From: a plasmid
Strand: one strand, 5' to 3'
Sequence record: NZ_CP023006.1
Length of the DNA: 39,282 nt
In this document: positions 5,231-31,419 of the stretch, piece after piece
How positions within the stretch are numbered: the first letter of the stretch is position 1
How the letters are laid out: every line of letters begins with the position of its first letter
Position numbers and translations under genes: made by a program
The notes under the pieces: generated by a model
The model's database searches: none
Told to the model about the DNA's origin: nothing
Seen by the model: only the letters and a program-made list of their open reading frames with translations

Positions 5231-5231
5231 A

Positions 5232-5792
5232 ATGAAAAGTGAAGAGAAAGGACTTATTAAATATAGTGTTACTATAGGAATTATTGTTTTTGTTGTTCTT
5301 TGTGTTACACATAATTTGAATATTAGACTAAATACATTGAAGTCTATTACGGATTACGCGGGAGATTCTATATCTATTAGTGTAATTTTTGCATTTTTTT
5401 ATGAAAAATATATTTGGCGTTGGAATCCATTTGAAAAACATCCGAGACTTGCTAAAAAATATTCTGGTTATCTTATTTCAACCTTTGATGATAAAAAAAG
5501 AACACTCGAACTAGACTTGAAACAAACTTTAATGACTTGCAAAGTACATCAAAAAACTGAAGAAAGCGACAGCGATGCAATTAATACAAATATAATAGAT
5601 ATAAATGGACGAAGTGCCCTTGTTTACACCTATTTAAATGTTCCAAGGCTAAATGTCCGAGAAAGAAGCCCTATACATTATGGAAGTGCTATTCTTTTTA
5701 TTAACAGTCAAGAAAAACTTAATGGAGGATACTTTACTGATAGGAAAACGACCGGTCAGATAACTGCTGAGAAAAAGATTAAACCGATTTAA
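5232..5792 (+). CDS. Two-TM effector protein (Cap15-like: 2 N-terminal TM helices + beta-rich C-terminal domain), 186 aa
   Basis: Start is 1 nt after the NTase stop, with RBS AGGAGA. TM1 is about aa 11-29 (YSVTIGIIVFVVLCVTHNL) and TM2 about aa 48-63 (ISISVIFAFFYEKYIW). The C-terminal about 120 aa has alternating hydrophobic patterns (beta-rich). Its position directly after a CD-NTase matches the type I CBASS effector slot. Confidence 0.6.
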   Translation: MKSEEKGLIKYSVTIGIIVFVVLCVTHNLNIRLNTLKSITDYAGDSISISVIFAFFYEKYIWRWNPFEKHPRLAKKYSGYLISTFDDKKRTLELDLKQTLMTCKVHQKTEESDSDAINTNIIDINGRSALVYTYLNVPRLNVRERSPIHYGSAILFINSQEKLNGGYFTDRKTTGQITAEKKIKPI

Positions 5793-9099: not shown

Positions 9100-9290
9100 G
9101 GCGTGTAAGTGCGCCTTGACCGAGATTTGCTCGGTTTGCGGACTCACATAGATGTTCTATGTGTAAGTGCGCATTAAACTCATTTCATTCCGTTTAATGA
9201 CGCTAAAAAATAGCTAACTTGATCATTAAAATAAAAGGTTTTTTTAGTTCAATGCGCATTTACACGTCAACTAACTTTGACGTGTTTCGA
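9100..9290. repeat. Cluster of recombinase-site-like repeats (candidate res/multimer-resolution site)
   Basis: gtgtaagtgcgcc at 9103-9115, gtgtaagtgcgcatt at 9160-9174, and inverted aatgcgcatttacac at 9250-9264 (rc gtgtaaatgcgcatt, 1 mismatch). Small IRs also occur at 9145-9159 (catag..ctatg) and 9262-9283 (cacgtcaa..ttgacgtg). Lies immediately downstream of the recombinase gene. Confidence 0.5.
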
Positions 9291-9436
9291 TACCCCAAAA
9301 ATTGTATTAGATTTCGCTGCGCTCAAACAAATCTTTTTAATTGCTTTACACCGTTTTTCTTTCTAAACTTAATCACAATCTTTGAATAACTAACTATAAA
9401 AAGATGCCTTTAATTTAAACCTGAAATAATTAGCTA

Positions 9437-9649
9437 ATGTTAGGAGTCATTAAGCTGGACGAAAAGAAAGTATTAAAACCAATTGATGAAATGCTTGCTG
9501 ATCCTTGGCAAGTTGATATTCAAGAATTGTTTGAAGCTTCTGTCAATGAACCTGACGAGATCAAAAGGAATTTGTATGATTCCCTATATACTTATATTTT
9601 ACAAAAAAGACAAGAAGATATTATTAATCGTCCTGGCTTTGCTATTTAG
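9437..9649 (+). CDS. Hypothetical small acidic protein, 70 aa (coding status uncertain)
   Basis: Clean ORF in an otherwise non-coding stretch. No convincing SD. Weak hairpin/T-run after the stop. Confidence 0.3.
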   Translation: MLGVIKLDEKKVLKPIDEMLADPWQVDIQELFEASVNEPDEIKRNLYDSLYTYILQKRQEDIINRPGFAI

Positions 9650-9729
9650 TCCTCTAAAAGCTCACTGAGGGCTTTTTATTTTTGCTTTGGTGTAAATGTA
9701 TATGAATAGTCTTAAAATCGCTGAGAACA

Positions 9730-10100
9730 AAAAATAAGGCCCTTAAAAAGTGACATAGCAGTTAAATCTTTATCAAGTTTTAGAAAAGCTAACTGTTTGC
9801 TGTCAATGGTAGCGGACGAGCAAAGCGTGGGAGCATAAGGAATTGACAGCTCTTAACTAGTCTTAACACTGAATTGGCGAAAGCCAAAGTTTCTATAAAA
9901 CTTTGCTTTCCTGCCTAACGGCGAGTGAAAAAGCGGTCAAGCTGGCTCAGCTTGGATGGGGTTCGGGGCGTTAGCGCCCGATTAAATGTGGCTTGCCACA
10001 CCTTTTTAGGCAACGAACGAAGTGAGGCGCAAGAAGCGTAGCGACTGGAGTTTAATGTGAGCCGGTTTTTGGCTCACTCCTTTGTGTTTTTTGTTTCTAG
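9730..10100 (+). other. GC-enriched, highly structured non-coding region ending in an intrinsic terminator (candidate about 350-nt structured RNA, or a cis-acting site such as oriT/ssi)
   Basis: Serial inverted repeats: gctgtcaat..attgacagc (9-bp arms, 9793-9844); caaagtt..aactttg; caagctg-gct-cagcttg; ggcg-ttag-cgcc; gtgg-cttg-ccac. The final gtgagcc-ggttttt-ggctcac (10057-10077) is followed by a T-rich tract (tcctttgtgttttttgtttc). No ORF. Confidence 0.35.
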
Positions 10101-10119
10101 ATTTTAATCTCGTACAGCG

Positions 10120-10345
10120 GTGCCTCTTATATACCTCTTTTATAAACCTCTTTTAAACCTCTTTTAGACCCCTCTTGAGCCTTACTCTCCCAAGGCTCAC
10201 AGAAGGTTATCAAGTACCTTTTGTCTGTTTATCAAGTACCTTTTGTCTGTTTATCAAGTACCTTTTGTCTGTTTATCAAGTACCTTTTGTCTGTTTATCA
10301 AGTACCTTTATAAGTTCTGTACTTGATAAAAAGGTACTTTTATTT
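10120..10345. repeat. Theta-replication origin: five about-12-bp direct repeats (wACCTCTTTTA) followed by 4.5 x 22-bp iterons (tatcaagtaccttttgtctgtt) and an inverted partial iteron overlapping the repB promoter
   Basis: CCTCTT at 10123, 10134, 10147, 10158 and 10171 (11/13-bp spacing). Iterons at 10208, 10230, 10252 and 10274 (full), with a partial fifth at 10296. Inverted copy ttgataaaaaggtactt at 10323-10339 overlaps -35 TTGATA (10323-10328), 17-nt spacer, -10 TAATAT (10346-10351). Confidence 0.85.
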
Positions 10346-10369
10346 TAATATGTGTTTGAGGTGATAATC

Positions 10370-11305
10370 ATGTCTAATGAGTTAGTTAAGTATGATCCTG
10401 AGTTGAATACTATTCCCTTGAGAAAATTTACCCCAATTGAGATGAATTTATTTTTTTCAATTGTTTCCCGCATGCGGGATCAAGGGAATAAAACTGTTCG
10501 TTTCTCTTTTGACCAGTTAAAAGAGCTTAGTAACTATAAACCAACCGCAAATAAACGTTTTATTGATGATATTGAAAATACATACCAAAAGATCCTCAGC
10601 CTTAGGTTTGGCCGTAGAAGTAAGAGTGGCTTAAATCGTGAATTTTTTGTTATGTTTACTGAATTTGAAATTAAAGGTGAAGCTGAAGAACCTTATGTTG
10701 ATATTCAGGTTTATCCCAAAGCATTGCACTTGCTAAACGATTTAGAAAGTTGGGTTCGTTATGCCCTAACAGAATTTAGAAATTTAAAAAGCAGTTACGC
10801 TAAAACAATGTTTCGTCTAATTAAGCAATTTCGAACTACTGGCTATTCTTATTTCTCTAAAGAAGATTTTTTTGAATTGCTTGATATACCTAAAAGTTAT
10901 TGGAATAGTCCTTCAAATGTTGACAAAAAGGTTATTAAGCCAATTAGAGAAGAATTAACCCCGCTTTTTAGAGGGCTAACGATTAGAAAAAAATATGGTA
11001 AAGGCAGAGGAAAACCAGTTATCGGTTATTCTTTTACTTGGAAACCTGAAAGCAAGGACGCAAATGATTTTTCTCAAGGCAAATTTCAAGATGAGCGTCA
11101 AAAACTCTTTAACATTCAACACAATGATGAATTATCAGATAAAGAAAAGTGGCGTGCAATTGACAAAGTTAAATGCTTGCCTTTAGGAACAACTGAAAAA
11201 CAGGTACTGGCTGAAAAACAAGCTGAACATGATCAAAAAATCAGAGATCAAGCAAGACAAGAAGCACTTGCTGAACTCCGAAAGGGGCTTGGAAATAATG
11301 CCTAA
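10370..11305 (+). CDS. repB: Replication initiator protein RepB (Rep_3-family, iteron-binding)
   Basis: Immediately downstream of iterons. RBS GAGGTGA 5 nt before ATG 10370 (the tool's GTG at 10352 lacks an RBS). The N-terminus MSNELVKYDPELNTIPLRKFTPIEMNLFFSIVSRM fits the Rep_3 pattern (vvk.n.Lnt....ls..E..l....is.i). Confidence 0.85.
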   Translation: MSNELVKYDPELNTIPLRKFTPIEMNLFFSIVSRMRDQGNKTVRFSFDQLKELSNYKPTANKRFIDDIENTYQKILSLRFGRRSKSGLNREFFVMFTEFEIKGEAEEPYVDIQVYPKALHLLNDLESWVRYALTEFRNLKSSYAKTMFRLIKQFRTTGYSYFSKEDFFELLDIPKSYWNSPSNVDKKVIKPIREELTPLFRGLTIRKKYGKGRGKPVIGYSFTWKPESKDANDFSQGKFQDERQKLFNIQHNDELSDKEKWRAIDKVKCLPLGTTEKQVLAEKQAEHDQKIRDQARQEALAELRKGLGNNA

Positions 11306-11575: not shown

Positions 11576-12139
11576 GTGGTGAAACTATTGGGCAAGACTA
11601 TTCGACAACTTTCAGAAGAATTGAAATTATCAAAACAAGGTATTAATCAACGTATTAATAGTATTAATGGCTTTCGAAGCAAACACACTTATAAAGTCAA
11701 AAACCATCTAGAAATAGACAACCAAGGCGTTAAAATGCTTGCTAATTTCGACAAGCAAAAACGACAAGAACGACAACCAAATCGGCAAGCTGAAAACGAC
11801 AAGGACAAAAATATTGATCATATCTTGCTAAAACAACTTGATGTTAAAGATCAACAAATTTCCAAATTACAAAAGTCCTTGGATCAGCAGCAACAACTAC
11901 AGTTAGCGACACTTGCCGAAAATCGTCAACTAAAGAACCATATTCAAGAATTGAGTGGTCTTCTTGAATCTTCTAATTCAATTCAAAAACGACAAGTAAC
12001 CAAGAAAAATGACAACTTTCCGAACAATGATAATTCCAGTCATATCAAGGATAAAAATGGTGTTGTCGGTACTGATGAAAAACAAAAGAAAATACATAAA
12101 AATAAAACCAATAAGAGTTGGTGGCATTTTTGGAAATAA
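11576..12139 (+). CDS. OrfX-like replication-associated/regulatory protein: N-terminal HTH + Q-rich coiled coil, 187 aa (true start possibly TTG 11588)
   Basis: AGGTGG at 11574-11579, then TTG at 11588 giving MGKTIRQLSEELKLSKQGINQRI (HTH-like; the same motif as the mini-ORF). The central region is Q/K/E-rich and predicted coiled coil. Confidence 0.65.
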   Translation: MVKLLGKTIRQLSEELKLSKQGINQRINSINGFRSKHTYKVKNHLEIDNQGVKMLANFDKQKRQERQPNRQAENDKDKNIDHILLKQLDVKDQQISKLQKSLDQQQQLQLATLAENRQLKNHIQELSGLLESSNSIQKRQVTKKNDNFPNNDNSSHIKDKNGVVGTDEKQKKIHKNKTNKSWWHFWK

Positions 12140-12176
12140 ATTTCAGAGCAGTTATCAAAACTTTGGAGGGGTATCC

Positions 12177-13091
12177 TTGAAAGAAGACCACAAACAATCA
12201 AGCGAGAATCTGAGCTCTAACGATATTCATGAAAATATAATAAGAAAATATATGCCTGATATTCTGAATATTTTACTTATTGATAGAACAACAAGCACAG
12301 CTAATGGTACTCATAATATAATTTGGGCAAATAAGAATTATCTAAAGTATGATTCCAAAAGATATGCTATGACAGCGGAAATCAAGCCCGAACTAATCAC
12401 GGGACTTATGGAAGGCATTATTCGTCCAAGAGCGTTAAAAACTAAAGAGATTCAAAAAAGACGGACTAAATCGAAAGCCGAGGTTTTTACACCAACTTGG
12501 ATAGTAAAAAAACAGAATGATGAAGTTGACAATGATTTTGCCAACGATGATTTAGAAACTTACGTAAAGCGAACCTGGCTTGAGATTACTTGCGGGGAAG
12601 CTCCTTATATGACAACTAGATATGATATGGACACCGGGAAAACTATTCCTATTGCTAAGCGTGTTGGATTCATTGATCGAAAGCTAGCTCGCATCAATAA
12701 GGAAGTTGACGGTAAATTGGAATGGCAACGGCTGGTTGAAGAATCTTATAAATCCAGCTATGGTTTTGAATGGAATGGGGATTCACTGCTATTAGCGCGT
12801 GAAAACTTGCTTTATACTTACCGTGATAATTTTTTGATTAAGTGGCATACAGAGCCAACTCTAATTTTGCTTAGATCAATTGCTAAAATCATTAGTTACA
12901 ATGTTTTTCAAATGGATGGCTTAAAATATACAATTCCTTTGACTGAAAGAAAAGAAAAAAAGATTGATCCACAAATGTCATTGTTTGAAGATTATAGTGA
13001 TGAGAAGTGGATAGTTAAGCCTGGAAAACGTGTAAAAATAATGAATTGGGAAAAAAATAAAATGGAATTTTTTGATCAAGGAGTGAAATAA
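12177..13091 (+). CDS. Hypothetical protein, 304 aa, translationally coupled to the large helicase-methyltransferase gene
   Basis: Strong RBS GGAGGGG 6 nt before TTG 12177. The tool's longer ORF from 12009 would overlap the upstream gene by 130 nt. The stop TAA at 13089-13091 is 2 nt before the GTG of the next gene. It contains EVFTPTWIV and ITCGEAPY segments loosely reminiscent of MTase motifs X and I, but has no NPPY. Confidence 0.6.
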   Translation: MKEDHKQSSENLSSNDIHENIIRKYMPDILNILLIDRTTSTANGTHNIIWANKNYLKYDSKRYAMTAEIKPELITGLMEGIIRPRALKTKEIQKRRTKSKAEVFTPTWIVKKQNDEVDNDFANDDLETYVKRTWLEITCGEAPYMTTRYDMDTGKTIPIAKRVGFIDRKLARINKEVDGKLEWQRLVEESYKSSYGFEWNGDSLLLARENLLYTYRDNFLIKWHTEPTLILLRSIAKIISYNVFQMDGLKYTIPLTERKEKKIDPQMSLFEDYSDEKWIVKPGKRVKIMNWEKNKMEFFDQGVK

Positions 13092-13093
13092 GT

Positions 13094-16000
13094 GTGAAAA
13101 ATCAGCCCGCTATTAATACAACAAAAATAGTATACCCACAAATATACGCTTATACGTTACCAACCGAGAAAGAAGATTTAGGGTGGATTAAAATTGGTTA
13201 CACTGAACGTAAAAATGTTGATGATCGTATCAAAGAACAGACACATACGGCTGCCATTCGTTTAACATATTCCAAATTATGGTCAGAACCAGCCAAGTTT
13301 GCTAAAAATGAGGGTTGGTTTAAAGATAAGCAATTTCATTCCTATTTGCGTCGTTATAAGAAAGTTAGTCAGCGTCAAGGAACTGAATGGTTCTATTATG
13401 ATGGTCATCCGCAAAAATCACATCAAGATTTCATGGATTTTCGTAACAACCAGAAATCTCAAATTAAAGAACAGCTGACTTATCAGCTAAGACCTGAGCA
13501 AGTTGCAGCAGTTCACCAAACGTTAGATTATGCCCATAATCATCCTAATAGCGAATTCTTGTGGAACGCAAAACCACGGTTTGGAAAAACTTTAACTACA
13601 TATGATTTAGCTAGAAAATTAGATGCTAAAACTGTTTTAGTTGTGACTAATCGTCCTGCGGTTGCTAACTCTTGGTTTGATGATTTTGAAAAATTTATTT
13701 CTTGGCAAACTAGTTACGCTTTTATTTCGACTAATGATACTTTAAAAGATCGTCCAGTTTTAACAATAGACGAATTTAATAATGAACCATTTAGTGGCAG
13801 TAAAAAAGACAAAATGATTACCTTTATTTCCTTACAAGATTTGAAGGGAGCAATTTCATTTGGTGGTAACTATGACAAGCTCAAATGGGTTAAAGATTCA
13901 CATTGGGATTTACTAGTTATTGATGAGAGTCATGAGGGAGTAGATACTTTTAAAACTGATATTGCTTTCAATAATATTAATCGTGACTTTACTTTAAATT
14001 TATCTGGTACGCCCTTTAAAGCCGTTGCATCAGGAAAATTTAAACAAAATCAAATTTATAATTGGACTTATGCTGACGAACAACAGGCAAAAGCAAATTG
14101 GCATGATTCAGAAAAAAATAATCCTTATAGATCATTACCAAAGCTGAATCTGTTTTCTTATCAGATGAGTCCCATGATCACAGATGAAGTTAATCAAGGA
14201 GCACAAATCAACGGAGATAATATTGACTATGCTTTTGATTTAAATGAATTTTTCGCAACCAACCAAAATGGCCATTTTATTCATGAAATGGATATAAAAA
14301 AATGGTTAGATACCTTAACACATAACGAGAAATATCCATTCTCTACTAAAGAATTAAGGAATAAACTAAAGCATACTTTCTGGCTATTAAATCGTGTTGC
14401 CAGTGCTAAGGCGCTAGAAAAATTATTAAAAGAACATCCAGTTTTTAAAGATTATGAGATTATTTTAGCAGCTGGAGATGGGCATGGTTTTGATGACGAT
14501 CAGACCATTAATGAAAAATCACTTGATAAAGTTAAAAGAGAAATTAAAAAAAATGATAAAACTATAACGTTATCCGTTGGCCAATTGACGACTGGTGTGA
14601 CTATTCCTGAGTGGACAGCCGTATTAGTATTATCTAACCTAAAATCACCCAGCCAATACATGCAAGCGGCATTTCGGGCACAAAATCCGTGGGAACACAT
14701 GGTTAATGGTCAAGTTTATCAAAAAGAAAATGCCTACGTTTTTGACTTTGCCCCTGAACGTACGTTAACTATTTATGATGAATTTGCTAACGATTTATCA
14801 AAACAAACATCAAATGGTAACGGAACGACAAAGGACCGTGAGAAAAATATCGGGAGGTTATTGAACTTTTTCCCTGTAATTGCTGAAGATAAGCAAGGCA
14901 AGATGGTTGAATTAAACGTTAACCAGGTCCTAACTATTCCAAGAGCCATTAAAGCTCAAGAAGTAGTTCGACGTGGTTTTATGTCTAATTTGTTGTTTGC
15001 AAATATATCAGGAATTTTTGCTTCAGCAGGGGCACGAGAAATATTGGAACAATTAAATCCGGTTGACACTGGTAAAAAAGTTTCGCATAAGACTGAAAAG
15101 AAAATCGATACAAGAAATGTCAAAGTCAACGATAAGGGTGAAGTTGAAGTCAATCCAGAAATTGTTGTAGCTAAAACGTCGGCCCATTTTGGTGAGAAAG
15201 TTTACGGCGATATAACTGATAAAATCGAACAAGCGTCAAATCAAGATATCAATTTGGTCAAACTTACTTCAGATACATTCAAGAAAAAAACTTTAGCAGC
15301 AGCAAAGAATATTGCTAAAGAAAATGGTTTGACTGCTACAACAGCAGAACATATTATCCAGCAACATTCAAATTTTTTGGCGCGTGAAGTTCAAGTTATT
15401 CAAAAACAAAAGAATATAAAAGAAGCTCAAAATAAAGTAGATTTAAAGCAAGCTATTGAAAAATCTCAAGATAATCCTGAAGAAATTGCTAAAGCTCAGA
15501 CAGCGTTTGAAAATAGAAAACAACAAATTGAAAGGGGGTATAAAGAAAAATTAACCAAAAAAGTTGCTGATCAGACAAAACAACTAACCAATCAAACAAC
15601 TGAAACCTTGTTAAAAAAGGCAGAAGAAAAGAAGAAAAATACGGTTGAGGATGATATTCGAGCACGTTTGCGTGGCTTTGCTCGCACTATTCCTTCATTT
15701 TTGATGGCTTATGGTGCATCCACTACAGAACTAGCTAATTTTGATCAAAATATAAAAGGTGATGTTTTCAAAGAGGTAACAGGTATCACACTTGATCAGT
15801 TCCGATCCTTACGCGATACGTATCATTTTTTCGATGAAACAACATTTAATGAATCCGTTCAAGAATTTTTAAGAAAAAGATCTCAACTTGCTAATTATTT
15901 TGACGAATCACAAGATGAGGACATTTTTGATTATGTTCCAGCCCAGAAGACCAATCAAATATTTACTCCAAAGAGAGTCGTTAAATTGATGCTTGATAAG

Positions 16001-17326
16001 CTTGAAGAGGAAGAGCCTAACATCTTTAAAGACAAAAACAAAACTTTTGTTGATTTGTACGTTAAATCTGGATTGTATTTAACCGAAATCATCAAACGTC
16101 TTTATATTGGTCTGGAAGATCAAATACCTGAGTCAAATGAACGTTTGACTCATATCTTAGAAAAACAGATTTATGGTTTTGCTCCAAGCAATATTATTTA
16201 TAGCATTGCAAAGAACTTTGTTTTTTCACCCTTTCCAAATTTAGATAATTCACATTTAAAACAGTTAGATATGATTCCTTATGCCAAAAGAGAGAAGAGG
16301 CTGGATATGAAATTTGACGTAGTGGTGGGAAATCCACCTTATCAGGAAACAGCAAATGGTAAAAGTACTAAAGACGTTCCAGTTTATAATTACTTTTATG
16401 ATTTAGCAGAAAGAGTTTCAACAAAATATATTTTAATTTCTCCAGCTCGTTTCTTATTTAATGCCGGCAGTACCGATAAAAAATGGAATAAGAAGATGCT
16501 TTCAAATAAACATATAAAGGTTGTTTTTTATGAGCAAGATGCAGCAAAGATTTTTCCAAATACCGATATTAAGGGTGGGATTGCTATCCTATATAGAAAT
16601 AAAGATAAAGATTTCGGAAACATTGGATTGTTTACTCCTTTTGAAGAATTAGATTCCATCTCTAATAAAGTATCTAAGTTGACATATCGGACACTAGACG
16701 AAATTATTTCTAATCGTGGTCAATATAGATTTTCAGATTTAATTTACAAAGAATATCCGAATGATATGAAGAAAATTTCAGACAGAAGAATCGCTTCTAA
16801 CGCGTTTAATAACCTCCCAAATTTATTTACAGAAAAAGAACCACACAATAAGTTCAATTATATAAGGATATTAGGTCGTTTAGACAATCAACGCATTTAT
16901 AGGTGGTTTAGGCGCGATTATTTACAAGAACCCATAACTTTTGAAAAATGGAAAATAATACTACCTAAAGCTAATGGAAGTGGGGCAATTGGAGAAGTAT
17001 TAAGTACACCCCTAATCGGTAAACCCCTAATCGGGTTTACCGAGACTTTTATTTCAATTGGTGTTTTTGATAATAAGTTAGAAGCTCAAAATGCTCTAAA
17101 ATATGTCCAAAGTAAATTTGCACGAACTATGCTGGGAATTTTAAAAATTACACAGGACAATCCAAAGGATAAGTGGTCAAAGGTTCCTCTTCAAGACTTC
17201 ACACAAAATTCAGATATAGATTGGACTAAGTCAATATCTGATATTGATCAGCAACTTTATAAAAAATATGGACTAAATCAAAAAGAAATTAATTTTATTG
17301 AAAATAAAGTTAAATCAATGAATTAA
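13094..17326 (+). CDS. Large multidomain protein, 1410 aa: T5orf172 (GIY-YIG superfamily) domain + SF2 DExH helicase + K/E-rich coiled coil + gamma-class N6-adenine MTase (NPPY) + TRD-like C-terminus; Type ISP-RM-like architecture
   Basis: GTG start with AAGGAG 11 nt upstream. aa 14-60 IVYPQIYAYTL..GWIKIGYTERKNVDDRIKEQ (T5orf172-like). Helicase motif I AKPRFGKT (aa 160-166), II VIDESH (aa 275-280), III LSGTPF, VI-like QAAFRAQN (aa 524-531). MTase motif X IFTPKRVVKLML (F957), motif IV FDVVVGNPPYQ (N1080-Y1083). Eco57I/TaqI-like post-NPPY region (YFYDLAERVSTKYILISPARFL) and C-terminal YKKYGLNQKEINFIE helix. Confidence 0.85.
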   Translation: MKNQPAINTTKIVYPQIYAYTLPTEKEDLGWIKIGYTERKNVDDRIKEQTHTAAIRLTYSKLWSEPAKFAKNEGWFKDKQFHSYLRRYKKVSQRQGTEWFYYDGHPQKSHQDFMDFRNNQKSQIKEQLTYQLRPEQVAAVHQTLDYAHNHPNSEFLWNAKPRFGKTLTTYDLARKLDAKTVLVVTNRPAVANSWFDDFEKFISWQTSYAFISTNDTLKDRPVLTIDEFNNEPFSGSKKDKMITFISLQDLKGAISFGGNYDKLKWVKDSHWDLLVIDESHEGVDTFKTDIAFNNINRDFTLNLSGTPFKAVASGKFKQNQIYNWTYADEQQAKANWHDSEKNNPYRSLPKLNLFSYQMSPMITDEVNQGAQINGDNIDYAFDLNEFFATNQNGHFIHEMDIKKWLDTLTHNEKYPFSTKELRNKLKHTFWLLNRVASAKALEKLLKEHPVFKDYEIILAAGDGHGFDDDQTINEKSLDKVKREIKKNDKTITLSVGQLTTGVTIPEWTAVLVLSNLKSPSQYMQAAFRAQNPWEHMVNGQVYQKENAYVFDFAPERTLTIYDEFANDLSKQTSNGNGTTKDREKNIGRLLNFFPVIAEDKQGKMVELNVNQVLTIPRAIKAQEVVRRGFMSNLLFANISGIFASAGAREILEQLNPVDTGKKVSHKTEKKIDTRNVKVNDKGEVEVNPEIVVAKTSAHFGEKVYGDITDKIEQASNQDINLVKLTSDTFKKKTLAAAKNIAKENGLTATTAEHIIQQHSNFLAREVQVIQKQKNIKEAQNKVDLKQAIEKSQDNPEEIAKAQTAFENRKQQIERGYKEKLTKKVADQTKQLTNQTTETLLKKAEEKKKNTVEDDIRARLRGFARTIPSFLMAYGASTTELANFDQNIKGDVFKEVTGITLDQFRSLRDTYHFFDETTFNESVQEFLRKRSQLANYFDESQDEDIFDYVPAQKTNQIFTPKRVVKLMLDKLEEEEPNIFKDKNKTFVDLYVKSGLYLTEIIKRLYIGLEDQIPESNERLTHILEKQIYGFAPSNIIYSIAKNFVFSPFPNLDNSHLKQLDMIPYAKREKRLDMKFDVVVGNPPYQETANGKSTKDVPVYNYFYDLAERVSTKYILISPARFLFNAGSTDKKWNKKMLSNKHIKVVFYEQDAAKIFPNTDIKGGIAILYRNKDKDFGNIGLFTPFEELDSISNKVSKLTYRTLDEIISNRGQYRFSDLIYKEYPNDMKKISDRRIASNAFNNLPNLFTEKEPHNKFNYIRILGRLDNQRIYRWFRRDYLQEPITFEKWKIILPKANGSGAIGEVLSTPLIGKPLIGFTETFISIGVFDNKLEAQNALKYVQSKFARTMLGILKITQDNPKDKWSKVPLQDFTQNSDIDWTKSISDIDQQLYKKYGLNQKEINFIENKVKSMN

Positions 17327-17346
17327 AGGCCAATAAGGAGGAAAAA

Positions 17347-18324
17347 ATGAACTTTACAGAGAAAAAATTAAAGTCTTTCTCGATGCCACTCAGTGATACA
17401 GAAGATCAAAAATGTAAGCATGCTATTCAAGAAGTTAGAAATTCTATGGCTAACTTGGGATTTGAGGAGTCTTCTAATGGAATAACTCGTGTATTTGACA
17501 ATACTAGTTCCTATCAAACATTCATGAAAAATAATGAATCGGGCGAAAAAATCAAAATTTTTCTCCAGGGATCCTATGCAAATAATACTAATATCAAAGC
17601 AGAAAGTGACGTTGATGTTGCTATAGTAAGAGAAGAAATTTTTAACACACTTTTTCGTAGTGAAGGAGTATACCCTCAAAATAATGAAACGTTTGGATTT
17701 TATAATGTACCACAAAAGCCAATAACATTTAAAGATCGTGTAGACACATGCTTAAGAGCTAGCTTTCACGAGCAAGTAATAAGACATAATAAGTCAATTA
17801 GGGTTTTGGGAAATAGTTACAGAAAAAATGCTGACACAGTCCCAGCTAATCGTTACAGAAACTATCAAGGAAACTATTCAAATGATCCTGAAGACTATGT
17901 TGGAGGGATAATAATTAAACCAGATTATGGAACTTCTATAATTAATTATCCAGAACAACATATACGCATGGGAAGGCAGAAAAACATAGCAACAAATCAT
18001 TTTTATAAAAAACAAGTTAGAATAATGAAAAGCATTAAAAACTTAATGACTGATGAGGGATATACATCCGCACAAAAAATGTCATCTTTTGGTTTGGAGT
18101 CATTAACTTGGAATATACCTGATAACATTTTCACTAAATATGACCAGCTAAGATTTGTTTTCGATGATATTGTTATCTATTTGACCGACCATGCAGATAA
18201 TGTAGCTAACTTTAAAGAGGCAAATGGTATAAAAAGACTTTGTAATGATGAAAATCAAGTTACGGATTATCTAAACTTTATTTCGGATTTAAAATCATTC
18301 TATGAATTTGAAATAGGAGATTAG
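17347..18324 (+). CDS. cGAS/DncV-like nucleotidyltransferase (SMODS/CD-NTase-like), copy B
   Basis: Identical to 4253..5230 (+13094). Confidence 0.75.
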   Translation: MNFTEKKLKSFSMPLSDTEDQKCKHAIQEVRNSMANLGFEESSNGITRVFDNTSSYQTFMKNNESGEKIKIFLQGSYANNTNIKAESDVDVAIVREEIFNTLFRSEGVYPQNNETFGFYNVPQKPITFKDRVDTCLRASFHEQVIRHNKSIRVLGNSYRKNADTVPANRYRNYQGNYSNDPEDYVGGIIIKPDYGTSIINYPEQHIRMGRQKNIATNHFYKKQVRIMKSIKNLMTDEGYTSAQKMSSFGLESLTWNIPDNIFTKYDQLRFVFDDIVIYLTDHADNVANFKEANGIKRLCNDENQVTDYLNFISDLKSFYEFEIGD

Positions 18325-18325
18325 A

Positions 18326-18886
18326 ATGAAAAGTGAAGAGAAAGGACTTATTAAATATAGTGTTACTATAGGAATTATTGTTTTTGTTGTTCTTTGTGTT
18401 ACACATAATTTGAATATTAGACTAAATACATTGAAGTCTATTACGGATTACGCGGGAGATTCTATATCTATTAGTGTAATTTTTGCATTTTTTTATGAAA
18501 AATATATTTGGCGTTGGAATCCATTTGAAAAACATCCGAGACTTGCTAAAAAATATTCTGGTTATCTTATTTCAACCTTTGATGATAAAAAAAGAACACT
18601 CGAACTAGACTTGAAACAAACTTTAATGACTTGCAAAGTACATCAAAAAACTGAAGAAAGCGACAGCGATGCAATTAATACAAATATAATAGATATAAAT
18701 GGACGAAGTGCCCTTGTTTACACCTATTTAAATGTTCCAAGGCTAAATGTCCGAGAAAGAAGCCCTATACATTATGGAAGTGCTATTCTTTTTATTAACA
18801 GTCAAGAAAAACTTAATGGAGGATACTTTACTGATAGGAAAACGACCGGTCAGATAACTGCTGAGAAAAAGATTAAACCGATTTAA
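18326..18886 (+). CDS. Two-TM Cap15-like effector, copy B
   Basis: Identical to 5232..5792 (+13094). Confidence 0.6.
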   Translation: MKSEEKGLIKYSVTIGIIVFVVLCVTHNLNIRLNTLKSITDYAGDSISISVIFAFFYEKYIWRWNPFEKHPRLAKKYSGYLISTFDDKKRTLELDLKQTLMTCKVHQKTEESDSDAINTNIIDINGRSALVYTYLNVPRLNVRERSPIHYGSAILFINSQEKLNGGYFTDRKTTGQITAEKKIKPI

Positions 18887-19078
18887 GTAATAACTTATAA
18901 AAAATTCATAATATTTAATTACATTAGGGGCCATAATTAACAAATACCCCCTTGAAAAGACCGATAAAACAGCCCCTAACAAATCAACTTGGTTTGTTAG
19001 GGGCTGTTTTTTAGATTATACTTAAAATAACGCCTATAATGGTTGGATTCTAATGCTTAAAAAAGAGGTGACTAGGTT

Positions 19079-19351
19079 ATGGTGCAATAACTTGTTTTAC
19101 CAATCAAAGATTCTAACGTCCTAACAAGTGTCCAGGAGACGCTGTTGGATAGTTTTCGAGCTGGTCGGCGTAATTACACCATTTTTCAACTGGGTAAAGC
19201 GACCTTACTACGGGTCAGTGATGTCATGCAGCTGAAAAAGGTTGATGTCTTTAACGCCGATGGTACGATTAAGCAAAATACGTTTATCCTCGACCAAAAA
19301 ACGGGTAAAGCTAACACTCTTTATCTCAAACCAGTGCAGACTGTATATTAA
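19079..19351 (+). pseudogene. Tyrosine recombinase pseudogene fragment, copy B
   Basis: Identical to 5985..6257 (+13094). Confidence 0.8.
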
Positions 19352-20337
19352 TCTTTTGGAAATATTTTTTCATTGATAACAACGACTGTTTTTTCGCTAA
19401 TGCCCATTCTATATTCAAATAATAAATCTACTAATTCATCACCATCAACTAAGGTAATTAAATTAGCTCCTTGACGCGATCTACTGACAGCATCATTTGT
19501 ATAGGTAGAAGTCGTTACAAATATCCCTCTGTCTGCATTATGACCACTAATGGTACCAGCAAAATTACTGATATCTGGTCCTGTAACCGGACCTTTTGTA
19601 AATCGCTTAGTTTGTAACACAATTTTATATGTCATCAACTCAGGGGTTCTTAAATAACCTATGCCATCAATGCCACTATCTCCTGTTTTTGAAGTGGTAT
19701 CCATTTTAATGCCTATTTTTCGCATAAGATTTACAATCAATTCTTCAAACTTATATGGATTCATTTCACTCAATCGCTGTAATAATTGATCTCGCCATAA
19801 TTCAGAATCATCTGTTTCTTCTACAATGTCTTCGTCCAGATTGGCAATATTGACATTTGAAGATGATAGTATTTCATCTTTCTTTTTTTGATTATTTAGC
19901 TTCTTTTTTTGCCAAACAGGAGTAGATATTGAGTATACATCGTCCCATACATCAAAGTTATTTATATCAACGTCTTCTCCCATCTGTGTCAAGGCCCATA
20001 CTCCCCACTGTGGTGAATAAAGTAATCCGGCTTTCTTTAAATTAGACATAGACCACTGCAATCTAAAATCTAACTGACTTTGACCATTACTAGACTTTTT
20101 CTCTCTATCTGCATCTGTAAAATAAGGATATTCAACAGCCTTTTCTTTGACAAGAGCAGCTTTAGTTGGCCCCCCATAAGACTGTAATGCTTGTAAAATA
20201 GCCACTACACCAAACTTCTCCATATAGTTCAAGTTTTTATTAGAATTCACGAAGCTGAGCCAATTCTTAGGCATATCAGCTTCCAATTCTGTTATTTTAC
20301 GAGTGATTCCGAAATGATCATACGCTAAATCTACCAT
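19348..20337 (-). CDS. mrr: Mrr-family type IV restriction endonuclease, copy B
   Basis: Identical to 6254..7243 (+13094). Confidence 0.8.
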   Translation of the reverse strand: MVDLAYDHFGITRKITELEADMPKNWLSFVNSNKNLNYMEKFGVVAILQALQSYGGPTKAALVKEKAVEYPYFTDADREKKSSNGQSQLDFRLQWSMSNLKKAGLLYSPQWGVWALTQMGEDVDINNFDVWDDVYSISTPVWQKKKLNNQKKKDEILSSSNVNIANLDEDIVEETDDSELWRDQLLQRLSEMNPYKFEELIVNLMRKIGIKMDTTSKTGDSGIDGIGYLRTPELMTYKIVLQTKRFTKGPVTGPDISNFAGTISGHNADRGIFVTTSTYTNDAVSRSRQGANLITLVDGDELVDLLFEYRMGISEKTVVVINEKIFPKD

Positions 20338-20815
20338 GTTTAATCCATCCTTATAAATTTTATTTTTATTATACACTTACGTTTACAGATTATTTTAATG
20401 TGGTTAAGCTGACACCAGCTTGCCCGACGCGGGTAGCGTTCTGCATGACATGCTCCCGATGAAATCGACCATGCAACGGTAAATTGCCCTGTCACGGCGT
20501 GACCCGCCGGAGGTTTTACGAGCCGGATAATAGGCGCTGTAAAATAGCAGTTTTCCCAGAAGGAAGGGAAAACGCTACTGTAATCGCTTGTCGATTACTT
20601 GCCTCGCAGAGCCTGTCCAAAATATTATTTTGGTATAACAGGCTATACCAGATTTTTAACGGTGTTATACTGGTCTTGGAAAACCTTTTTCGAGGAGGCA
20701 TTTTTGATGGCGCATTTACAAAATCGCCCCTCAAAAATATTGAAAGAATAACCCCTAATATCTATAATGCAGATATTAGGGGTTATTTATTTTCATATTA
20801 TAAAAATGACTTCTT

Positions 20816-21172
20816 CTATTCGTCATTTTTTCGATACCTTTTAGAACGATTTTGACCAGGAAATAAACGATCATGCGATCCGACTCGAATGCCAATTAAG
20901 ACTAGTTCATCTTTATCAATCGTATAAACCACCAGGACATCGTTAGTTTCGCTTGGTGTTTTGTTTTTCGGGGTATCTCGCAAGTGAAATTCATTATAAC
21001 CGCTCATTCGCCGATTAAGCTCATGATCTTCAAATTCTGGTGGTAATTGTTGTTGCTCAAGCAACAGGTCAATGGCTGCTCGAACTTCATTAATAATAGA
21101 TTTGTCTAAACTGGCTAACCGTTTTAGATCAGCATTAAAGGTTGCACGTGGTTTAAATCTTAGTTTTTTCAT
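20816..21172 (-). CDS. RelE/YafQ-like toxin, copy B
   Basis: Identical to 7722..8078 (+13094). Confidence 0.7.
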   Translation of the reverse strand: MKKLRFKPRATFNADLKRLASLDKSIINEVRAAIDLLLEQQQLPPEFEDHELNRRMSGYNEFHLRDTPKNKTPSETNDVLVVYTIDKDELVLIGIRVGSHDRLFPGQNRSKRYRKNDE

Positions 21173-21459
21173 TATTTAAACTGGCCCCAATAATCATCAT
21201 CTGATTCAACAATTTCATCGTCAGGTAAAACATGGCGTTTAATTAACTGATCACGTGCAATTGCATATTCTAACGAACCTTCTTTAGCTTTTAATGCTCT
21301 TTCTAGCCACTCCATTTTTTCTTGTGAAACAATGGCTACTGCGCGACTATTTGAACGAGCAATATAAACGGTTTCGTCTTCGTCATTAACTTGATCTAAA
21401 TATTTTTTTAGGTTAGCGCGAAAATCGCTCTGTGTTAATGCTAATGTCATATTTACCAC
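21172..21459 (-). CDS. Phd/YefM antitoxin, copy B
   Basis: Identical to 8078..8365 (+13094). Confidence 0.75.
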   Translation of the reverse strand: MVNMTLALTQSDFRANLKKYLDQVNDEDETVYIARSNSRAVAIVSQEKMEWLERALKAKEGSLEYAIARDQLIKRHVLPDDEIVESDDDYWGQFK

Positions 21460-21526: not shown

Positions 21527-22114
21527 ATGCAACAAGTTGTCTTACCCATCAAAGATTCAAACGTTCTCAAAGAGGTGCAAGATACCTTACTCAACAACTT
21601 TAAAGCTGGCCGGCGTAACTATACAGTTTTTCAAGTTGGCAAAGCAACACTGTTGCGAGTCAGTGATGTCATGCGCTTAAAACAAACCGATATTTTTAAT
21701 CCGGACGGTTCTATTAAACAAAATGCGTTTATTCATGACCGAAAAACGGGTAAACCGAATACCTTGTACCTTAAACCTGTTCAAACAGAGCTCTTATTGT
21801 ACCGTCAATGGCTGCTTGATCATAAACTGGATTCTGAATGGCTCTTTCCTTCAATTCAACACCCAGAACGCCATATCACGGAAAAACAGTTCTACAAAAT
21901 TATGAGTAAGGTTGGCGATCTTTTAAGCATTAATTATCTAGGTACTCATACGATGCGCAAAACTGGGGCTTATCGTGTTTACACGCAATCAAATTACAAT
22001 ATTGGTTTAGTCATGCACTTATTAAATCATTCAAGTGAAGCCATGACTTTAGCTTATTTAGGCTTAGACCAAGCCAGTACCGAAACGATGTTAGATCAAA
22101 TTGATTTTGGTTAG
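21527..22114 (+). CDS. Short tyrosine recombinase, copy B
   Basis: Identical to 8433..9020 (+13094). Confidence 0.85.
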   Translation: MQQVVLPIKDSNVLKEVQDTLLNNFKAGRRNYTVFQVGKATLLRVSDVMRLKQTDIFNPDGSIKQNAFIHDRKTGKPNTLYLKPVQTELLLYRQWLLDHKLDSEWLFPSIQHPERHITEKQFYKIMSKVGDLLSINYLGTHTMRKTGAYRVYTQSNYNIGLVMHLLNHSSEAMTLAYLGLDQASTETMLDQIDFG

Positions 22115-23213: not shown

Positions 23214-23439
23214 GTGCCTCTTATATACCTCTTTTATAAACCTCTTTTAAACCTCTTTTAGACCCCTCTTGAGCCTTACTCTCCCAAGGCTCACAGAAGG
23301 TTATCAAGTACCTTTTGTCTGTTTATCAAGTACCTTTTGTCTGTTTATCAAGTACCTTTTGTCTGTTTATCAAGTACCTTTTGTCTGTTTATCAAGTACC
23401 TTTATAAGTTCTGTACTTGATAAAAAGGTACTTTTATTT
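23214..23439. repeat. Replication origin (short DRs + 22-bp iterons), copy B
   Basis: Identical to 10120..10345 (+13094). Confidence 0.85.
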
Positions 23440-23463
23440 TAATATGTGTTTGAGGTGATAATC

Positions 23464-24399
23464 ATGTCTAATGAGTTAGTTAAGTATGATCCTGAGTTGA
23501 ATACTATTCCCTTGAGAAAATTTACCCCAATTGAGATGAATTTATTTTTTTCAATTGTTTCCCGCATGCGGGATCAAGGGAATAAAACTGTTCGTTTCTC
23601 TTTTGACCAGTTAAAAGAGCTTAGTAACTATAAACCAACCGCAAATAAACGTTTTATTGATGATATTGAAAATACATACCAAAAGATCCTCAGCCTTAGG
23701 TTTGGCCGTAGAAGTAAGAGTGGCTTAAATCGTGAATTTTTTGTTATGTTTACTGAATTTGAAATTAAAGGTGAAGCTGAAGAACCTTATGTTGATATTC
23801 AGGTTTATCCCAAAGCATTGCACTTGCTAAACGATTTAGAAAGTTGGGTTCGTTATGCCCTAACAGAATTTAGAAATTTAAAAAGCAGTTACGCTAAAAC
23901 AATGTTTCGTCTAATTAAGCAATTTCGAACTACTGGCTATTCTTATTTCTCTAAAGAAGATTTTTTTGAATTGCTTGATATACCTAAAAGTTATTGGAAT
24001 AGTCCTTCAAATGTTGACAAAAAGGTTATTAAGCCAATTAGAGAAGAATTAACCCCGCTTTTTAGAGGGCTAACGATTAGAAAAAAATATGGTAAAGGCA
24101 GAGGAAAACCAGTTATCGGTTATTCTTTTACTTGGAAACCTGAAAGCAAGGACGCAAATGATTTTTCTCAAGGCAAATTTCAAGATGAGCGTCAAAAACT
24201 CTTTAACATTCAACACAATGATGAATTATCAGATAAAGAAAAGTGGCGTGCAATTGACAAAGTTAAATGCTTGCCTTTAGGAACAACTGAAAAACAGGTA
24301 CTGGCTGAAAAACAAGCTGAACATGATCAAAAAATCAGAGATCAAGCAAGACAAGAAGCACTTGCTGAACTCCGAAAGGGGCTTGGAAATAATGCCTAA
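23464..24399 (+). CDS. repB: RepB replication initiator, copy B
   Basis: Identical to 10370..11305 (+13094). Confidence 0.85.
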   Translation: MSNELVKYDPELNTIPLRKFTPIEMNLFFSIVSRMRDQGNKTVRFSFDQLKELSNYKPTANKRFIDDIENTYQKILSLRFGRRSKSGLNREFFVMFTEFEIKGEAEEPYVDIQVYPKALHLLNDLESWVRYALTEFRNLKSSYAKTMFRLIKQFRTTGYSYFSKEDFFELLDIPKSYWNSPSNVDKKVIKPIREELTPLFRGLTIRKKYGKGRGKPVIGYSFTWKPESKDANDFSQGKFQDERQKLFNIQHNDELSDKEKWRAIDKVKCLPLGTTEKQVLAEKQAEHDQKIRDQARQEALAELRKGLGNNA

Positions 24400-24669: not shown

Positions 24670-25233
24670 GTGGTGAAACTATTGGGCAAGACTATTCGAC
24701 AACTTTCAGAAGAATTGAAATTATCAAAACAAGGTATTAATCAACGTATTAATAGTATTAATGGCTTTCGAAGCAAACACACTTATAAAGTCAAAAACCA
24801 TCTAGAAATAGACAACCAAGGCGTTAAAATGCTTGCTAATTTCGACAAGCAAAAACGACAAGAACGACAACCAAATCGGCAAGCTGAAAACGACAAGGAC
24901 AAAAATATTGATCATATCTTGCTAAAACAACTTGATGTTAAAGATCAACAAATTTCCAAATTACAAAAGTCCTTGGATCAGCAGCAACAACTACAGTTAG
25001 CGACACTTGCCGAAAATCGTCAACTAAAGAACCATATTCAAGAATTGAGTGGTCTTCTTGAATCTTCTAATTCAATTCAAAAACGACAAGTAACCAAGAA
25101 AAATGACAACTTTCCGAACAATGATAATTCCAGTCATATCAAGGATAAAAATGGTGTTGTCGGTACTGATGAAAAACAAAAGAAAATACATAAAAATAAA
25201 ACCAATAAGAGTTGGTGGCATTTTTGGAAATAA
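24670..25233 (+). CDS. OrfX-like HTH/coiled-coil protein, copy B
   Basis: Identical to 11576..12139 (+13094). Confidence 0.65.
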   Translation: MVKLLGKTIRQLSEELKLSKQGINQRINSINGFRSKHTYKVKNHLEIDNQGVKMLANFDKQKRQERQPNRQAENDKDKNIDHILLKQLDVKDQQISKLQKSLDQQQQLQLATLAENRQLKNHIQELSGLLESSNSIQKRQVTKKNDNFPNNDNSSHIKDKNGVVGTDEKQKKIHKNKTNKSWWHFWK

Positions 25234-25270
25234 ATTTCAGAGCAGTTATCAAAACTTTGGAGGGGTATCC

Positions 25271-26185
25271 TTGAAAGAAGACCACAAACAATCAAGCGAG
25301 AATCTGAGCTCTAACGATATTCATGAAAATATAATAAGAAAATATATGCCTGATATTCTGAATATTTTACTTATTGATAGAACAACAAGCACAGCTAATG
25401 GTACTCATAATATAATTTGGGCAAATAAGAATTATCTAAAGTATGATTCCAAAAGATATGCTATGACAGCGGAAATCAAGCCCGAACTAATCACGGGACT
25501 TATGGAAGGCATTATTCGTCCAAGAGCGTTAAAAACTAAAGAGATTCAAAAAAGACGGACTAAATCGAAAGCCGAGGTTTTTACACCAACTTGGATAGTA
25601 AAAAAACAGAATGATGAAGTTGACAATGATTTTGCCAACGATGATTTAGAAACTTACGTAAAGCGAACCTGGCTTGAGATTACTTGCGGGGAAGCTCCTT
25701 ATATGACAACTAGATATGATATGGACACCGGGAAAACTATTCCTATTGCTAAGCGTGTTGGATTCATTGATCGAAAGCTAGCTCGCATCAATAAGGAAGT
25801 TGACGGTAAATTGGAATGGCAACGGCTGGTTGAAGAATCTTATAAATCCAGCTATGGTTTTGAATGGAATGGGGATTCACTGCTATTAGCGCGTGAAAAC
25901 TTGCTTTATACTTACCGTGATAATTTTTTGATTAAGTGGCATACAGAGCCAACTCTAATTTTGCTTAGATCAATTGCTAAAATCATTAGTTACAATGTTT
26001 TTCAAATGGATGGCTTAAAATATACAATTCCTTTGACTGAAAGAAAAGAAAAAAAGATTGATCCACAAATGTCATTGTTTGAAGATTATAGTGATGAGAA
26101 GTGGATAGTTAAGCCTGGAAAACGTGTAAAAATAATGAATTGGGAAAAAAATAAAATGGAATTTTTTGATCAAGGAGTGAAATAA
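25271..26185 (+). CDS. Hypothetical 304-aa protein, copy B
   Basis: Identical to 12177..13091 (+13094). Confidence 0.6.
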   Translation: MKEDHKQSSENLSSNDIHENIIRKYMPDILNILLIDRTTSTANGTHNIIWANKNYLKYDSKRYAMTAEIKPELITGLMEGIIRPRALKTKEIQKRRTKSKAEVFTPTWIVKKQNDEVDNDFANDDLETYVKRTWLEITCGEAPYMTTRYDMDTGKTIPIAKRVGFIDRKLARINKEVDGKLEWQRLVEESYKSSYGFEWNGDSLLLARENLLYTYRDNFLIKWHTEPTLILLRSIAKIISYNVFQMDGLKYTIPLTERKEKKIDPQMSLFEDYSDEKWIVKPGKRVKIMNWEKNKMEFFDQGVK

Positions 26186-31418: not shown

Positions 31419-31419
31419 A

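Follow-up and report, generated by a model that had tools for sequence, protein, structure and literature searches.

A probable minimal type I CBASS operon of the CdnE-Cap15 kind on a small Lactobacillaceae plasmid

The plasmid record NZ_CP023006.1 was analysed over a stretch of 39,282 bp (the window), of which positions 17347-18886 hold two adjacent plus-strand genes, one for a putative clade-E cGAS/DncV-like nucleotidyltransferase (CD-NTase, CdnE-type; 325 amino acids (aa), 17347-18324) and one for a predicted Cap15-family (S-2TM-beta) effector (186 aa, 18326-18886). We consider it very likely that this pair constitutes a minimal type I (I-B) cyclic-oligonucleotide-based antiphage signalling system (CBASS), that is, an operon for abortive infection; its carrier is a theta-type plasmid (Rep_3/iteron) of 13.1 kb from the Lactobacillaceae pool, and the label I-B follows the usage of PMC10686824. 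The cyclase matches PADLOC profile PDLC00801 (4.6e-86; residues 1-322 on profile positions 2-295 of 295) and the effector the 2TM effector profile PDLC00708 (8.3e-54, full length), E-values at which the pair cannot be a chance resemblance. An earlier reading made from the sequence alone (the original prediction) had proposed such a CD-NTase/effector pair, and the coordinates it gave for both open reading frames (ORFs) hold on the plus strand.

The cyclase

Seventeen further PADLOC cyclase models also match the 325-aa protein. Among sequences of solved structures (phmmer against the PDB) its best match is EfCdnE (2e-37), followed by EmCdnE, LpCdnE, ClCdnE and RmCdnE, all of clade E; a weak sixth match, 6wt9 (E 7.3e-06), is a STING-associated CdnE whose PDB deposition describes it as an NTP_transf_2 domain protein. 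An AlphaFold model built with 68 homologues reached a mean predicted local distance difference test score (pLDDT) of 92.4 and a predicted template modelling score (pTM) of 0.87. Foldseek placed EfCdnE on top (E 1.7e-22, template modelling (TM) scores 0.81/0.86, 29% identity), then ClCdnE, LpCdnE, RmCdnE and EmCdnE. Ranks 1-14 are all CdnE enzymes, which precede clades D, B, C, G and A and cGAS, and the first 45 PDB matches listed are bacterial CD-NTases, cGAS or a cGAS-like receptor. By profile, sequence and modelled fold the protein is thus assigned to the clade-E CD-NTases, as the profile and fold checks suggested for the original prediction would have it.

The catalytic residues lie where they had been located. 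The active-site segment (17566-17619, plus strand) comprises Q74-G75-S76 (17566-17574) and S87-D88-V89-D90-V91 (17605-17619), in which D88 and D90 are the metal-binding aspartates; A162-D163-T164-V165-P166-A167 (17830-17847, plus strand) aligns to ADCIPS of EfCdnE and contributes the third catalytic aspartate, D163. The spacing of 11 residues claimed between the first two motifs applies from S76 to D88, and is 10 when counted from S76 to S87. Q74, G75, S76, D88, D90 and D163 are invariant in all 68 homologues and align with the same residues in EfCdnE (QGS...SDIDV), EmCdnE and LpCdnE.

The nucleobase lid residues N200 (lid 1) and H205 (lid 2; 17944-17961, plus strand) align to N174 and H179 of EfCdnE, and both are invariant among the homologues, as is E291. 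At the position of the lid-3 gauge, (R/Q)xW, the alignment with EfCdnE (R279/W281) and LpCdnE (Q274/W276) places N303-Q304-V305 (18253-18261, plus strand), so that this motif is absent from the plasmid enzyme. Columns 303 and 305 have no dominant residue in the 68 homologues: S/T/N and V/I are commonest, and R, Q and W fall outside the six commonest residues.

The effector

The 186-aa protein passes the Pfam model Cap15_CD_rec (PF18153) with 58.0 bits against a cut-off of 31.2 (1.5e-15; residues 71-181 on profile positions 4-122 of 122), and its sole significant sequence match in the PDB is the crystal construct of Yersinia Cap15, 7n34 (6e-4). Its AlphaFold model (90 homologues, pLDDT 93.4) shows helices at residues 3-26 and 35-59 and eight strands at 76-83, 89-98, 103-109, 112-124, 127-138, 149-159, 162-169 and 174-181. 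The strands form a barrel, the putative cyclic-dinucleotide receptor domain (residues 71-181; 18536-18868, plus strand), whose best Foldseek match is again YaCap15 7n34 (TM 0.79 over the crystal construct, root-mean-square deviation 2.6 A). Invariant columns among the 90 homologues cluster within it as S146-P-I-H-Y-G151 and Y167-x-T-D-R171-K-T-T-G175. The expected beta-rich domain is therefore present with eight strands over residues 76-181, at about 106-115 aa rather than the roughly 120 aa first estimated.

Two N-terminal transmembrane helices had also been foreseen, and a helical hairpin is indeed predicted at 18347-18505 (plus strand), with helix 1 at about residues 8-26 (18347-18403) and helix 2 at about 43-60 (18452-18505). 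In Kyte-Doolittle windows of 15 residues, helix 1 is strongly hydrophobic (2.73) and helix 2 moderately so (1.47); the soluble domain reaches at most 0.74, half the value of helix 2, and helix 2 is modelled as a helix packed on helix 1. A second hydrophobic peak of at least 1.5 is found in 74 of the 90 family members. Sequence and model together assign the protein to the Cap15 family of 2TM/beta-barrel effectors, as had been proposed.

A SLATT-type or otherwise helical effector was considered and is ruled out: the C-terminal domain is all-beta and matches Cap15. The helical, SLATT-like C-terminus that would have changed the family call is thus not what the model of two helices and an eight-stranded barrel shows.

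Operon structure and assignment to type I

The cyclase stop codon (TAG, 18322-18324) is separated by a single base from the effector ATG at 18326, which bears out the 1-nt gap read from the sequence. A ribosome-binding site, AAGGAGG, lies at 17335-17341 (plus strand), with 5 nt between it and the cyclase ATG; on its other side, 8 nt away, is the stop codon (17324-17326) of an upstream restriction-modification (RM) gene, only 20 nt separating that stop from the cyclase ATG. The site of the effector, AGGAG at 18315-18319 (plus strand), lies inside the final codons of the cyclase gene and precedes the effector ATG by 6 nt, which suggests translational coupling. A terminator-like hairpin followed by a T-run (18967-19019, plus strand; 20-bp stem with 8 G-C pairs, 3-nt loop) begins 80 nt past the effector stop.

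A 13,094-bp unit, repeated in tandem exactly three times with 100% identity at that period, makes up the whole window. It is one circular plasmid written out three times, and every feature recurs three times; the cyclase-effector pair accordingly appears also at 4253-5792 (first repeat) and 30441-31980 (third repeat), in identical copies on the plus strand. The gene inventory of the 13,094-bp plasmid (ORFs of at least 70 aa) contains no Cap2/Cap3, HORMA/TRIP13 or other CBASS accessory gene, its other genes, short unassigned ORFs and an antisense one aside, being those for a methyltransferase, the RM enzyme, Mrr, YafQ, Phd, an integrase, Rep_3 and a DUF536 protein. Cyclase and effector are adjacent and co-oriented, lie 1 nt apart, share a terminator and have a ribosome-binding site within the operon; together with the lack of ancillary CBASS genes on the plasmid this makes a type I system, in keeping with the type first suggested.

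Conservation of the pair and its genomic context

Among 185,579 species genomes scanned, 201 cyclase relatives were confirmed, and synteny was analysed for the 80 best, almost all from Bacillota. In 77 of these 80 loci the cyclase has a co-oriented neighbouring ORF that matches a Cap15 hidden Markov model; of the three exceptions, two lie at contig ends. The same pairing occurs on plasmids of L. sakei and C. futsaii (60% identity) and on the chromosome of Lederbergia lenta and one other chromosome. The association of cyclase and Cap15 is thus conserved across Bacillota. In two genome loci the Cap15 gene stands upstream of the cyclase rather than downstream.

This conservation bears on one alternative, namely a generic Pol-beta-type nucleotidyltransferase (e.g. 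an MNT/KNTase-like enzyme of resistance or of a toxin-antitoxin system) that happens to sit beside an unrelated small membrane protein. Such a reading could appeal to our local Pfam scan, in which NTP_transf_2 is the sole family above threshold for the cyclase (24.7 vs 21 bits), and to RefSeq, which labels relatives simply as nucleotidyltransferase. It is countered by the full-length CD-NTase profile match, by the sequence and fold matches, by the Pfam domain CD_NTase_C (PF26305) in homologues of the cyclase (one of them 93% identical), by the partner passing the Cap15 receptor model and by the retention of the pairing in 77/80 loci. Judged by these profile and model comparisons the generic reading is already refuted computationally, and the probability we would still leave it is negligible.

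Cyclase relatives are encoded on 79 PLSDB plasmids, and plasmid-borne CBASS of Lactococcus has been published (PMC11381338). Carriage on a small plasmid, which the original prediction had called notable, is therefore not especially so. It does invite the idea that the pair serves mainly plasmid maintenance or competition (post-segregational killing or exclusion) rather than phage defence, since the plasmid is small and carries other addiction-type modules (RM, YafQ/Phd), and the effector is a potential membrane toxin. Homologous pairs are, however, mostly chromosomal and lie in defence islands beside RM, BREX, Abi and similar systems; the characterised relatives are phage-triggered, and nothing in the pair resembles an unstable antitoxin. 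We regard a primary role in maintenance as extremely unlikely and retain the assignment to phage defence.

Just upstream of the CdnE-Cap15 pair, the neighbouring ORF shares its strand in 67 of 70 loci and is often a defence gene. Several hints of a coupling to RM exist, i.e. the 20-nt gap on the plasmid, an RM C-terminus that co-varies with the CBASS genes, and RM neighbours in C. futsaii, L. lenta and S. schleiferi. Across the 70 loci, the closest upstream ORFs nonetheless form a mixture (type I R in four, Eco57I in four, Abi, GmrSD and others), which indicates a generic defence-island context rather than a dedicated RM-CBASS functional unit. Recurring among these neighbours are Peptidase_S8 (S8 peptidase) in six loci and the BREX protein BrxL in four.

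On plasmids of L. sakei, C. futsaii and S. epidermidis the cyclase and its small-ORF partner are also followed, at a distance of about 100-520 nt, by a small serine recombinase gene. The arrangement fits recent reports that small serine recombinases mark defence cassettes (PMC13552941).

Relation to characterised systems

The closest experimental counterpart is the type I-B CBASS of Staphylococcus schleiferi, Ssc-CdnE03 with Cap15 (Banh et al., Nature 2023, PMC10686824). In that system K9, K13, K20 and R83 of the cyclase bind a structured phage RNA (cabRNA), K9 being essential for binding and immunity; infection leads to cyclic GMP-AMP (cGAMP; 3',2'-cGAMP) and to membrane damage by Cap15 (PMC10686824). 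The comparison was made with 64 residues of Ssc-CdnE03 rebuilt from cloning and mutagenesis primers in supplementary file 5 of that paper, namely MLFTEEQLKLYSKPLSESEKEK (residues 1-22), YATNTNVRQNSDVDIAVVKESEFFDKY (75-101) and the C-terminal ...DVKNYFEYSGEKKYE up to the stop. Over the first two fragments the plasmid cyclase aligns without gaps and is identical at 25 of 49 positions, D86/D88 of Ssc-CdnE03 corresponding to D88/D90. Other members of the plasmid cyclase's subfamily reach 34/49; in likeness to Ssc-CdnE03 the Lactobacillaceae branch of the plasmid enzyme ranks 66 of 68, and it is among the more divergent members. From these 64 residues Ssc-CdnE03 probably lies in or beside the same subfamily, and the fragments are compatible with a place of the plasmid cyclase in E03 or a neighbouring cluster. 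Over the active-site fragment, however, EfCdnE is just as similar (14/27, vs 13/27 for the plasmid cyclase), so that it is chiefly the N-terminus and the shared register that support this placement.

Both systems are two-gene operons in which a clade-E cyclase precedes a closely coupled Cap15, with an RM system beside them. The N-terminal length and register of the cyclases are the same, K9 aligns with K9, and a basic residue precedes the active site in both (R82/83 in Ssc-CdnE03, K84 here). Position 9 is K or R in 63 of the 68 homologues and position 84 is R or K in all of them; further basic residues near the N-terminus of the plasmid enzyme are K6, K7, K22, K24 and R31. On the other hand, K13 and K20 of Ssc-CdnE03 are replaced by M13 and D20, the Ssc genes overlap by 8 nt whereas those of the plasmid are 1 nt apart, and the Ssc system is chromosomal.

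EfCdnE of Enterococcus faecalis, the best solved match by sequence and by fold, likewise has Cap15 as its operon partner. Together with ClCdnE and LpCdnE it is a cyclic di-pyrimidine synthase (Nat Commun 2023, PMC10442399; PDB 7x4c, 7x4a, 7x4f). These enzymes use an Asn in lid 1, a His or Asn in lid 2 and the C-terminal (R/Q)xW gauge; in EfCdnE the gauge R279/W281 pairs with E267, and mutation of R279 or W281 admits purines to the donor site (PMC10442399). The plasmid cyclase shares the QGS/DxD/D residues and the counterparts of N174, H179 and E267 (N200, H205 and E291), but has N303/V305 in place of R279/W281. Of the two features of the di-pyrimidine type it thus has the lid-1 Asn and not the (R/Q)xW of lid 3. 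Its N-terminal helix is also set farther from the active site, by about 23 additional residues (D65/D67 of EfCdnE vs D88/D90).

For the effector, the reference is Cap15 of Yersinia aleksiciae (PDB 7n34/7n35; Duncan-Lowey et al., Mol Cell 2021), as it is described in PMC10442399 and PMC12657218. In those accounts it combines two N-terminal transmembrane helices with a minimal eight-stranded beta-barrel, the architecture predicted here, although the barrels are only about 20-22% identical.

Plasmid carriage in dairy and food lactic acid bacteria is shared with the type I and type II CBASS of Lactococcus, which protect against phages (NAR 2024, PMC11381338). In the lactococcal type I system a CdnB-like cyclase is paired with a SLATT effector, and in the type II system an SUa-2TM effector goes with Cap2 (PMC11381338), so that neither is a CdnE-Cap15 pair.

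Proposed mechanism

The plasmid itself displays the components; how they would work is taken over from S. schleiferi CdnE03-Cap15, EfCdnE-Cap15 and Yersinia Cap15. By analogy, the cyclase would stay inactive until phage infection and would then make a cyclic dinucleotide. This molecule would bind the Cap15 barrel, Cap15 would oligomerise and disrupt the cytoplasmic membrane, and the infected cell would die before phage progeny are released.

The same class of effector also operates in the opposite sense. In Panoptes (OptS/OptE; Nature 2025, PMC12657218) the synthase is an mCpol enzyme with a Cas10-palm fold and signalling is inverse. An inverse guard of this kind on the plasmid would mean that a constitutively made nucleotide keeps the S-2TM-beta effector off until phage sponges or nucleases deplete that nucleotide and so release the effector. 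OptE belongs to the same S-2TM-beta family as Cap15, Panoptes is likewise a two-gene operon of synthase and effector, and subtle differences may set whether the ligand activates or restrains (PMC12657218); moreover, clade-E EcCdnE01 is robustly active in vitro without ligand. The plasmid synthase, however, is a CD-NTase by profile, sequence and fold and not an mCpol, and the characterised CD-NTase-Cap15 systems, including S. schleiferi CdnE03-Cap15, signal in the canonical direction (PMC10686824). We therefore allow inverse signalling a slim chance; if true, the pair would be the first guard of the nucleotide pool built on a CD-NTase.

Under canonical CBASS signalling, two steps can be specified further. 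By analogy with Ssc-CdnE03, the trigger may be a structured phage RNA bound along a basic N-terminal spine, a possibility to which we give somewhat less than even chances; other type I CBASS respond to capsid-assembly proteins or show no RNA stimulation. The signal is more probably one with at least one purine (a cGAMP isomer or cUMP-purine) than a cyclic di-pyrimidine; the latter (cUU/cUC) is unlikely because the (R/Q)xW gauge of the donor pocket is absent. Finally, the divergent Lactobacillaceae branch, which lacks EfCdnE's pyrimidine gauge as well as two of the three RNA-binding lysines of Ssc-CdnE03, might sense a cue other than cabRNA or make a cyclic dinucleotide unlike those of both characterised relatives, a suggestion that we consider rather unlikely, though likelier than inverse signalling.

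Points against the assignment and variation between plasmids

Several observations weigh against the assignment. The Pfam SMODS model (PF18144) stays below threshold for the cyclase (13.4 vs 26.5 bits, E 0.093, residues 58-91); of the initial description as CD-NTase/SMODS-like, the CD-NTase part stands and Pfam SMODS itself does not. A literal SMODS test would thus mislead, PF18144 evidently having low sensitivity for the clade-E subfamily of this enzyme. No NCBIfam equivalog reaches its cut-off for the cyclase either: NF053871 (DS2_2_antiphage nucleotidyltransferase), which appears to be a related but distinct clade-E-like family, scores 153 vs 350 bits, and CBASS_cyclase_a/_b about 23-25 vs 200. 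Transmembrane helix 2 of the effector is only moderately hydrophobic (1.47 vs a family median of 1.85). The exchanges to M13 and D20 make the proposed RNA trigger uncertain. No promoter was found, promoter-like matches numbering 31 vs 30.1 +/- 4.6 in shuffled sequence. Finally, the nearest plasmid copy of the operon is broken.

This copy lies on L. plantarum LZ206p3 (NZ_CP015969.1), the closest PLSDB record to the plasmid (84% coverage, 94.7% identity) and the only PLSDB plasmid with a near-identical CBASS pair (its positions 9288-10855; DNA 97% identical). Relative to the window it has 40 substitutions, one 3-nt deletion and three 1-nt deletions (window positions 17975, 18387 and 18759). The 1-nt deletions disrupt both genes, the cyclase being annotated in pieces of 213 and 98 aa and the effector with 153 aa, so that the module can be lost or inactivated. 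On the same plasmid, the RM gene is split into about 10 pieces, which suggests assembly indel errors rather than real decay, and independent read assemblies carry intact 325-aa and 186-aa versions.

With this in mind, we asked if the pair could be a decayed, non-functional CBASS remnant that hitch-hikes in a recombining plasmid cassette. The three frameshifting deletions of LZ206p3 would fit, as would the recombination scars that flank the cassette (18979, inside the terminator, and an integrase fragment at 19145-19348). In the window, by contrast, both ORFs are full length, every family-invariant catalytic, lid and receptor residue is kept, and ribosome-binding sites and terminator are intact. 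The nearest variant, a Logan contig of SRR32661544 compared over window positions 12205-18962 (98.4% identical), differs in the cyclase by 27 synonymous and 22 non-synonymous codon changes, none of which hits a catalytic or lid residue. Decay is therefore given a small chance, and we keep to the reading of a functional CBASS operon. Changed residues relative to this contig amount to 22/325 in the cyclase, 20/1410 in the RM enzyme and 7/186 in the effector, with nucleotide identity falling to 90% around 18117-18270. The cyclase is thus the fastest-diverging gene of the cassette, possible causes being recombination or an accelerated evolution of the sensor.

A common backbone links the plasmid to P. 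pentosaceus pRS5 and L. backii pL11991-5, but similarity stops at about 16350, in the RM gene, and resumes at about 20720. LZ206p3 shares 15500-18979 (the 3' end of the RM gene plus the CBASS pair), leaves the common sequence inside the terminator hairpin and then jumps to 20722, without the integrase fragment and Mrr. The structure, as judged from these alignments, is modular, with cassettes that differ between otherwise similar plasmids, and the Mrr gene plus integrase fragment, absent from LZ206p3 and pRS5, form a separately variable module.

The plasmid

The replicon is an iteron-bearing Rep_3-type theta plasmid, and the small iteron plasmid recognised initially is confirmed. Its origin region (23217-23403) consists of A/T-rich degenerate repeats of 11-24 bp (23217-23270) followed by 4.7 perfect copies of the 22-bp iteron TTATCAAGTACCTTTTGTCTGT (23301-23403), 43 nt upstream of the Rep_3 initiator gene (23446-24399), which directly follows. 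The backbone is matched by 771 PLSDB records, mostly from Lactiplantibacillus, Leuconostoc and Pediococcus; by these sequence matches the plasmid belongs to the Lactobacillaceae pool, where this backbone is widespread. The Rfam scan found nothing within or beside the operon, its sole match being a Bacillus-plasmid RNA (RF01691; 22893-22953, plus strand; 70.7 bits vs a gathering score of 31) near the origin. This RNA is placed between the integrase gene and the origin region.

Upstream of the CBASS pair lie a putative type II methyltransferase (360 aa; 25103-26185, equivalent to 12009-13091, plus strand; PADLOC MTase_II 5e-72), for which no Pfam family match was obtained, and, 2 nt after its end, a single-chain RM enzyme of 1410 aa (13094-17326, plus strand). 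The 5' end of the methyltransferase ORF overlaps a DUF536 ORF (24670-25233), and its true start is therefore probably further downstream. The RM enzyme combines T5orf172, ResIII/Helicase_C and Eco57I/N6-methyltransferase domains (Pfam, PADLOC). Its N-terminal T5orf172 domain is GIY-YIG-like and its overall layout resembles types ISP/IIG; type ISP enzymes carry an Mrr-like nuclease at the place of T5orf172. The last approximately 320 aa (from about 16350) have no detectable DNA similarity to the genes of pRS5 and pL11991-5, which elsewhere are 91-98% identical, suggesting a swapped target-recognition region. Inside the RM gene, about 300 nt before its stop codon, a 15-bp tandem repeat (2.1 copies; 17004-17043, plus strand) overlaps a terminator-like hairpin with an 11-bp stem; this element may have arisen by chance, or it may act on the CBASS genes as an internal attenuator or a promoter-proximal element.

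Downstream of the CBASS terminator we found a truncated copy of the plasmid's own tyrosine integrase (19145-19348, plus strand); the intact gene (21527-22114) encodes 195 aa, and the copy is 76% identical to residues 22-87 of that protein. Lying between the terminator and Mrr, it is probably a recombination scar that marks a cassette boundary. The Mrr-type gene (19348-20376, minus strand; Mrr_N plus Mrr_cat) would encode a type IV, modification-dependent restriction enzyme. The conserved plasmid backbone includes a toxin-antitoxin pair (20816-21459, minus strand) whose genes overlap by 1 base, with a toxin of the YafQ family (118 aa) and an antitoxin of the Phd/YefM type (95 aa). Together, methyltransferase and RM enzyme, CBASS pair, Mrr and YafQ/Phd take up about 65% of the plasmid. 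The remaining ORFs of the inventory (at least 70 aa) are short unassigned ones (70 and 123 aa, the latter not scanned) and an antisense one.

Significance

Components and architecture of the system are all known and have been characterised experimentally in relatives, and PADLOC models dated 2023 already recognise both proteins. No new mechanistic question is opened by the CdnE-Cap15 pair. At best, it offers a Gram-positive, plasmid-borne relative of Ssc-CdnE03 for probing how general RNA sensing is, and it also lends itself to asking which nucleotide a CdnE without the pyrimidine gauge makes. The plasmid as a whole is a compact stack of defence and addiction modules and a tidy case of modular exchange. 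The main value lies in annotation: the copy on LZ206p3 and its relatives on plasmids of L. sakei and C. futsaii (60% identical) carry just the labels "nucleotidyltransferase" and "hypothetical protein". Recognition of the pair as a mobile abortive-infection CBASS of the CdnE-Cap15 kind would add it to the repertoire of food-fermentation lactobacilli, in which phage resistance is of industrial value.

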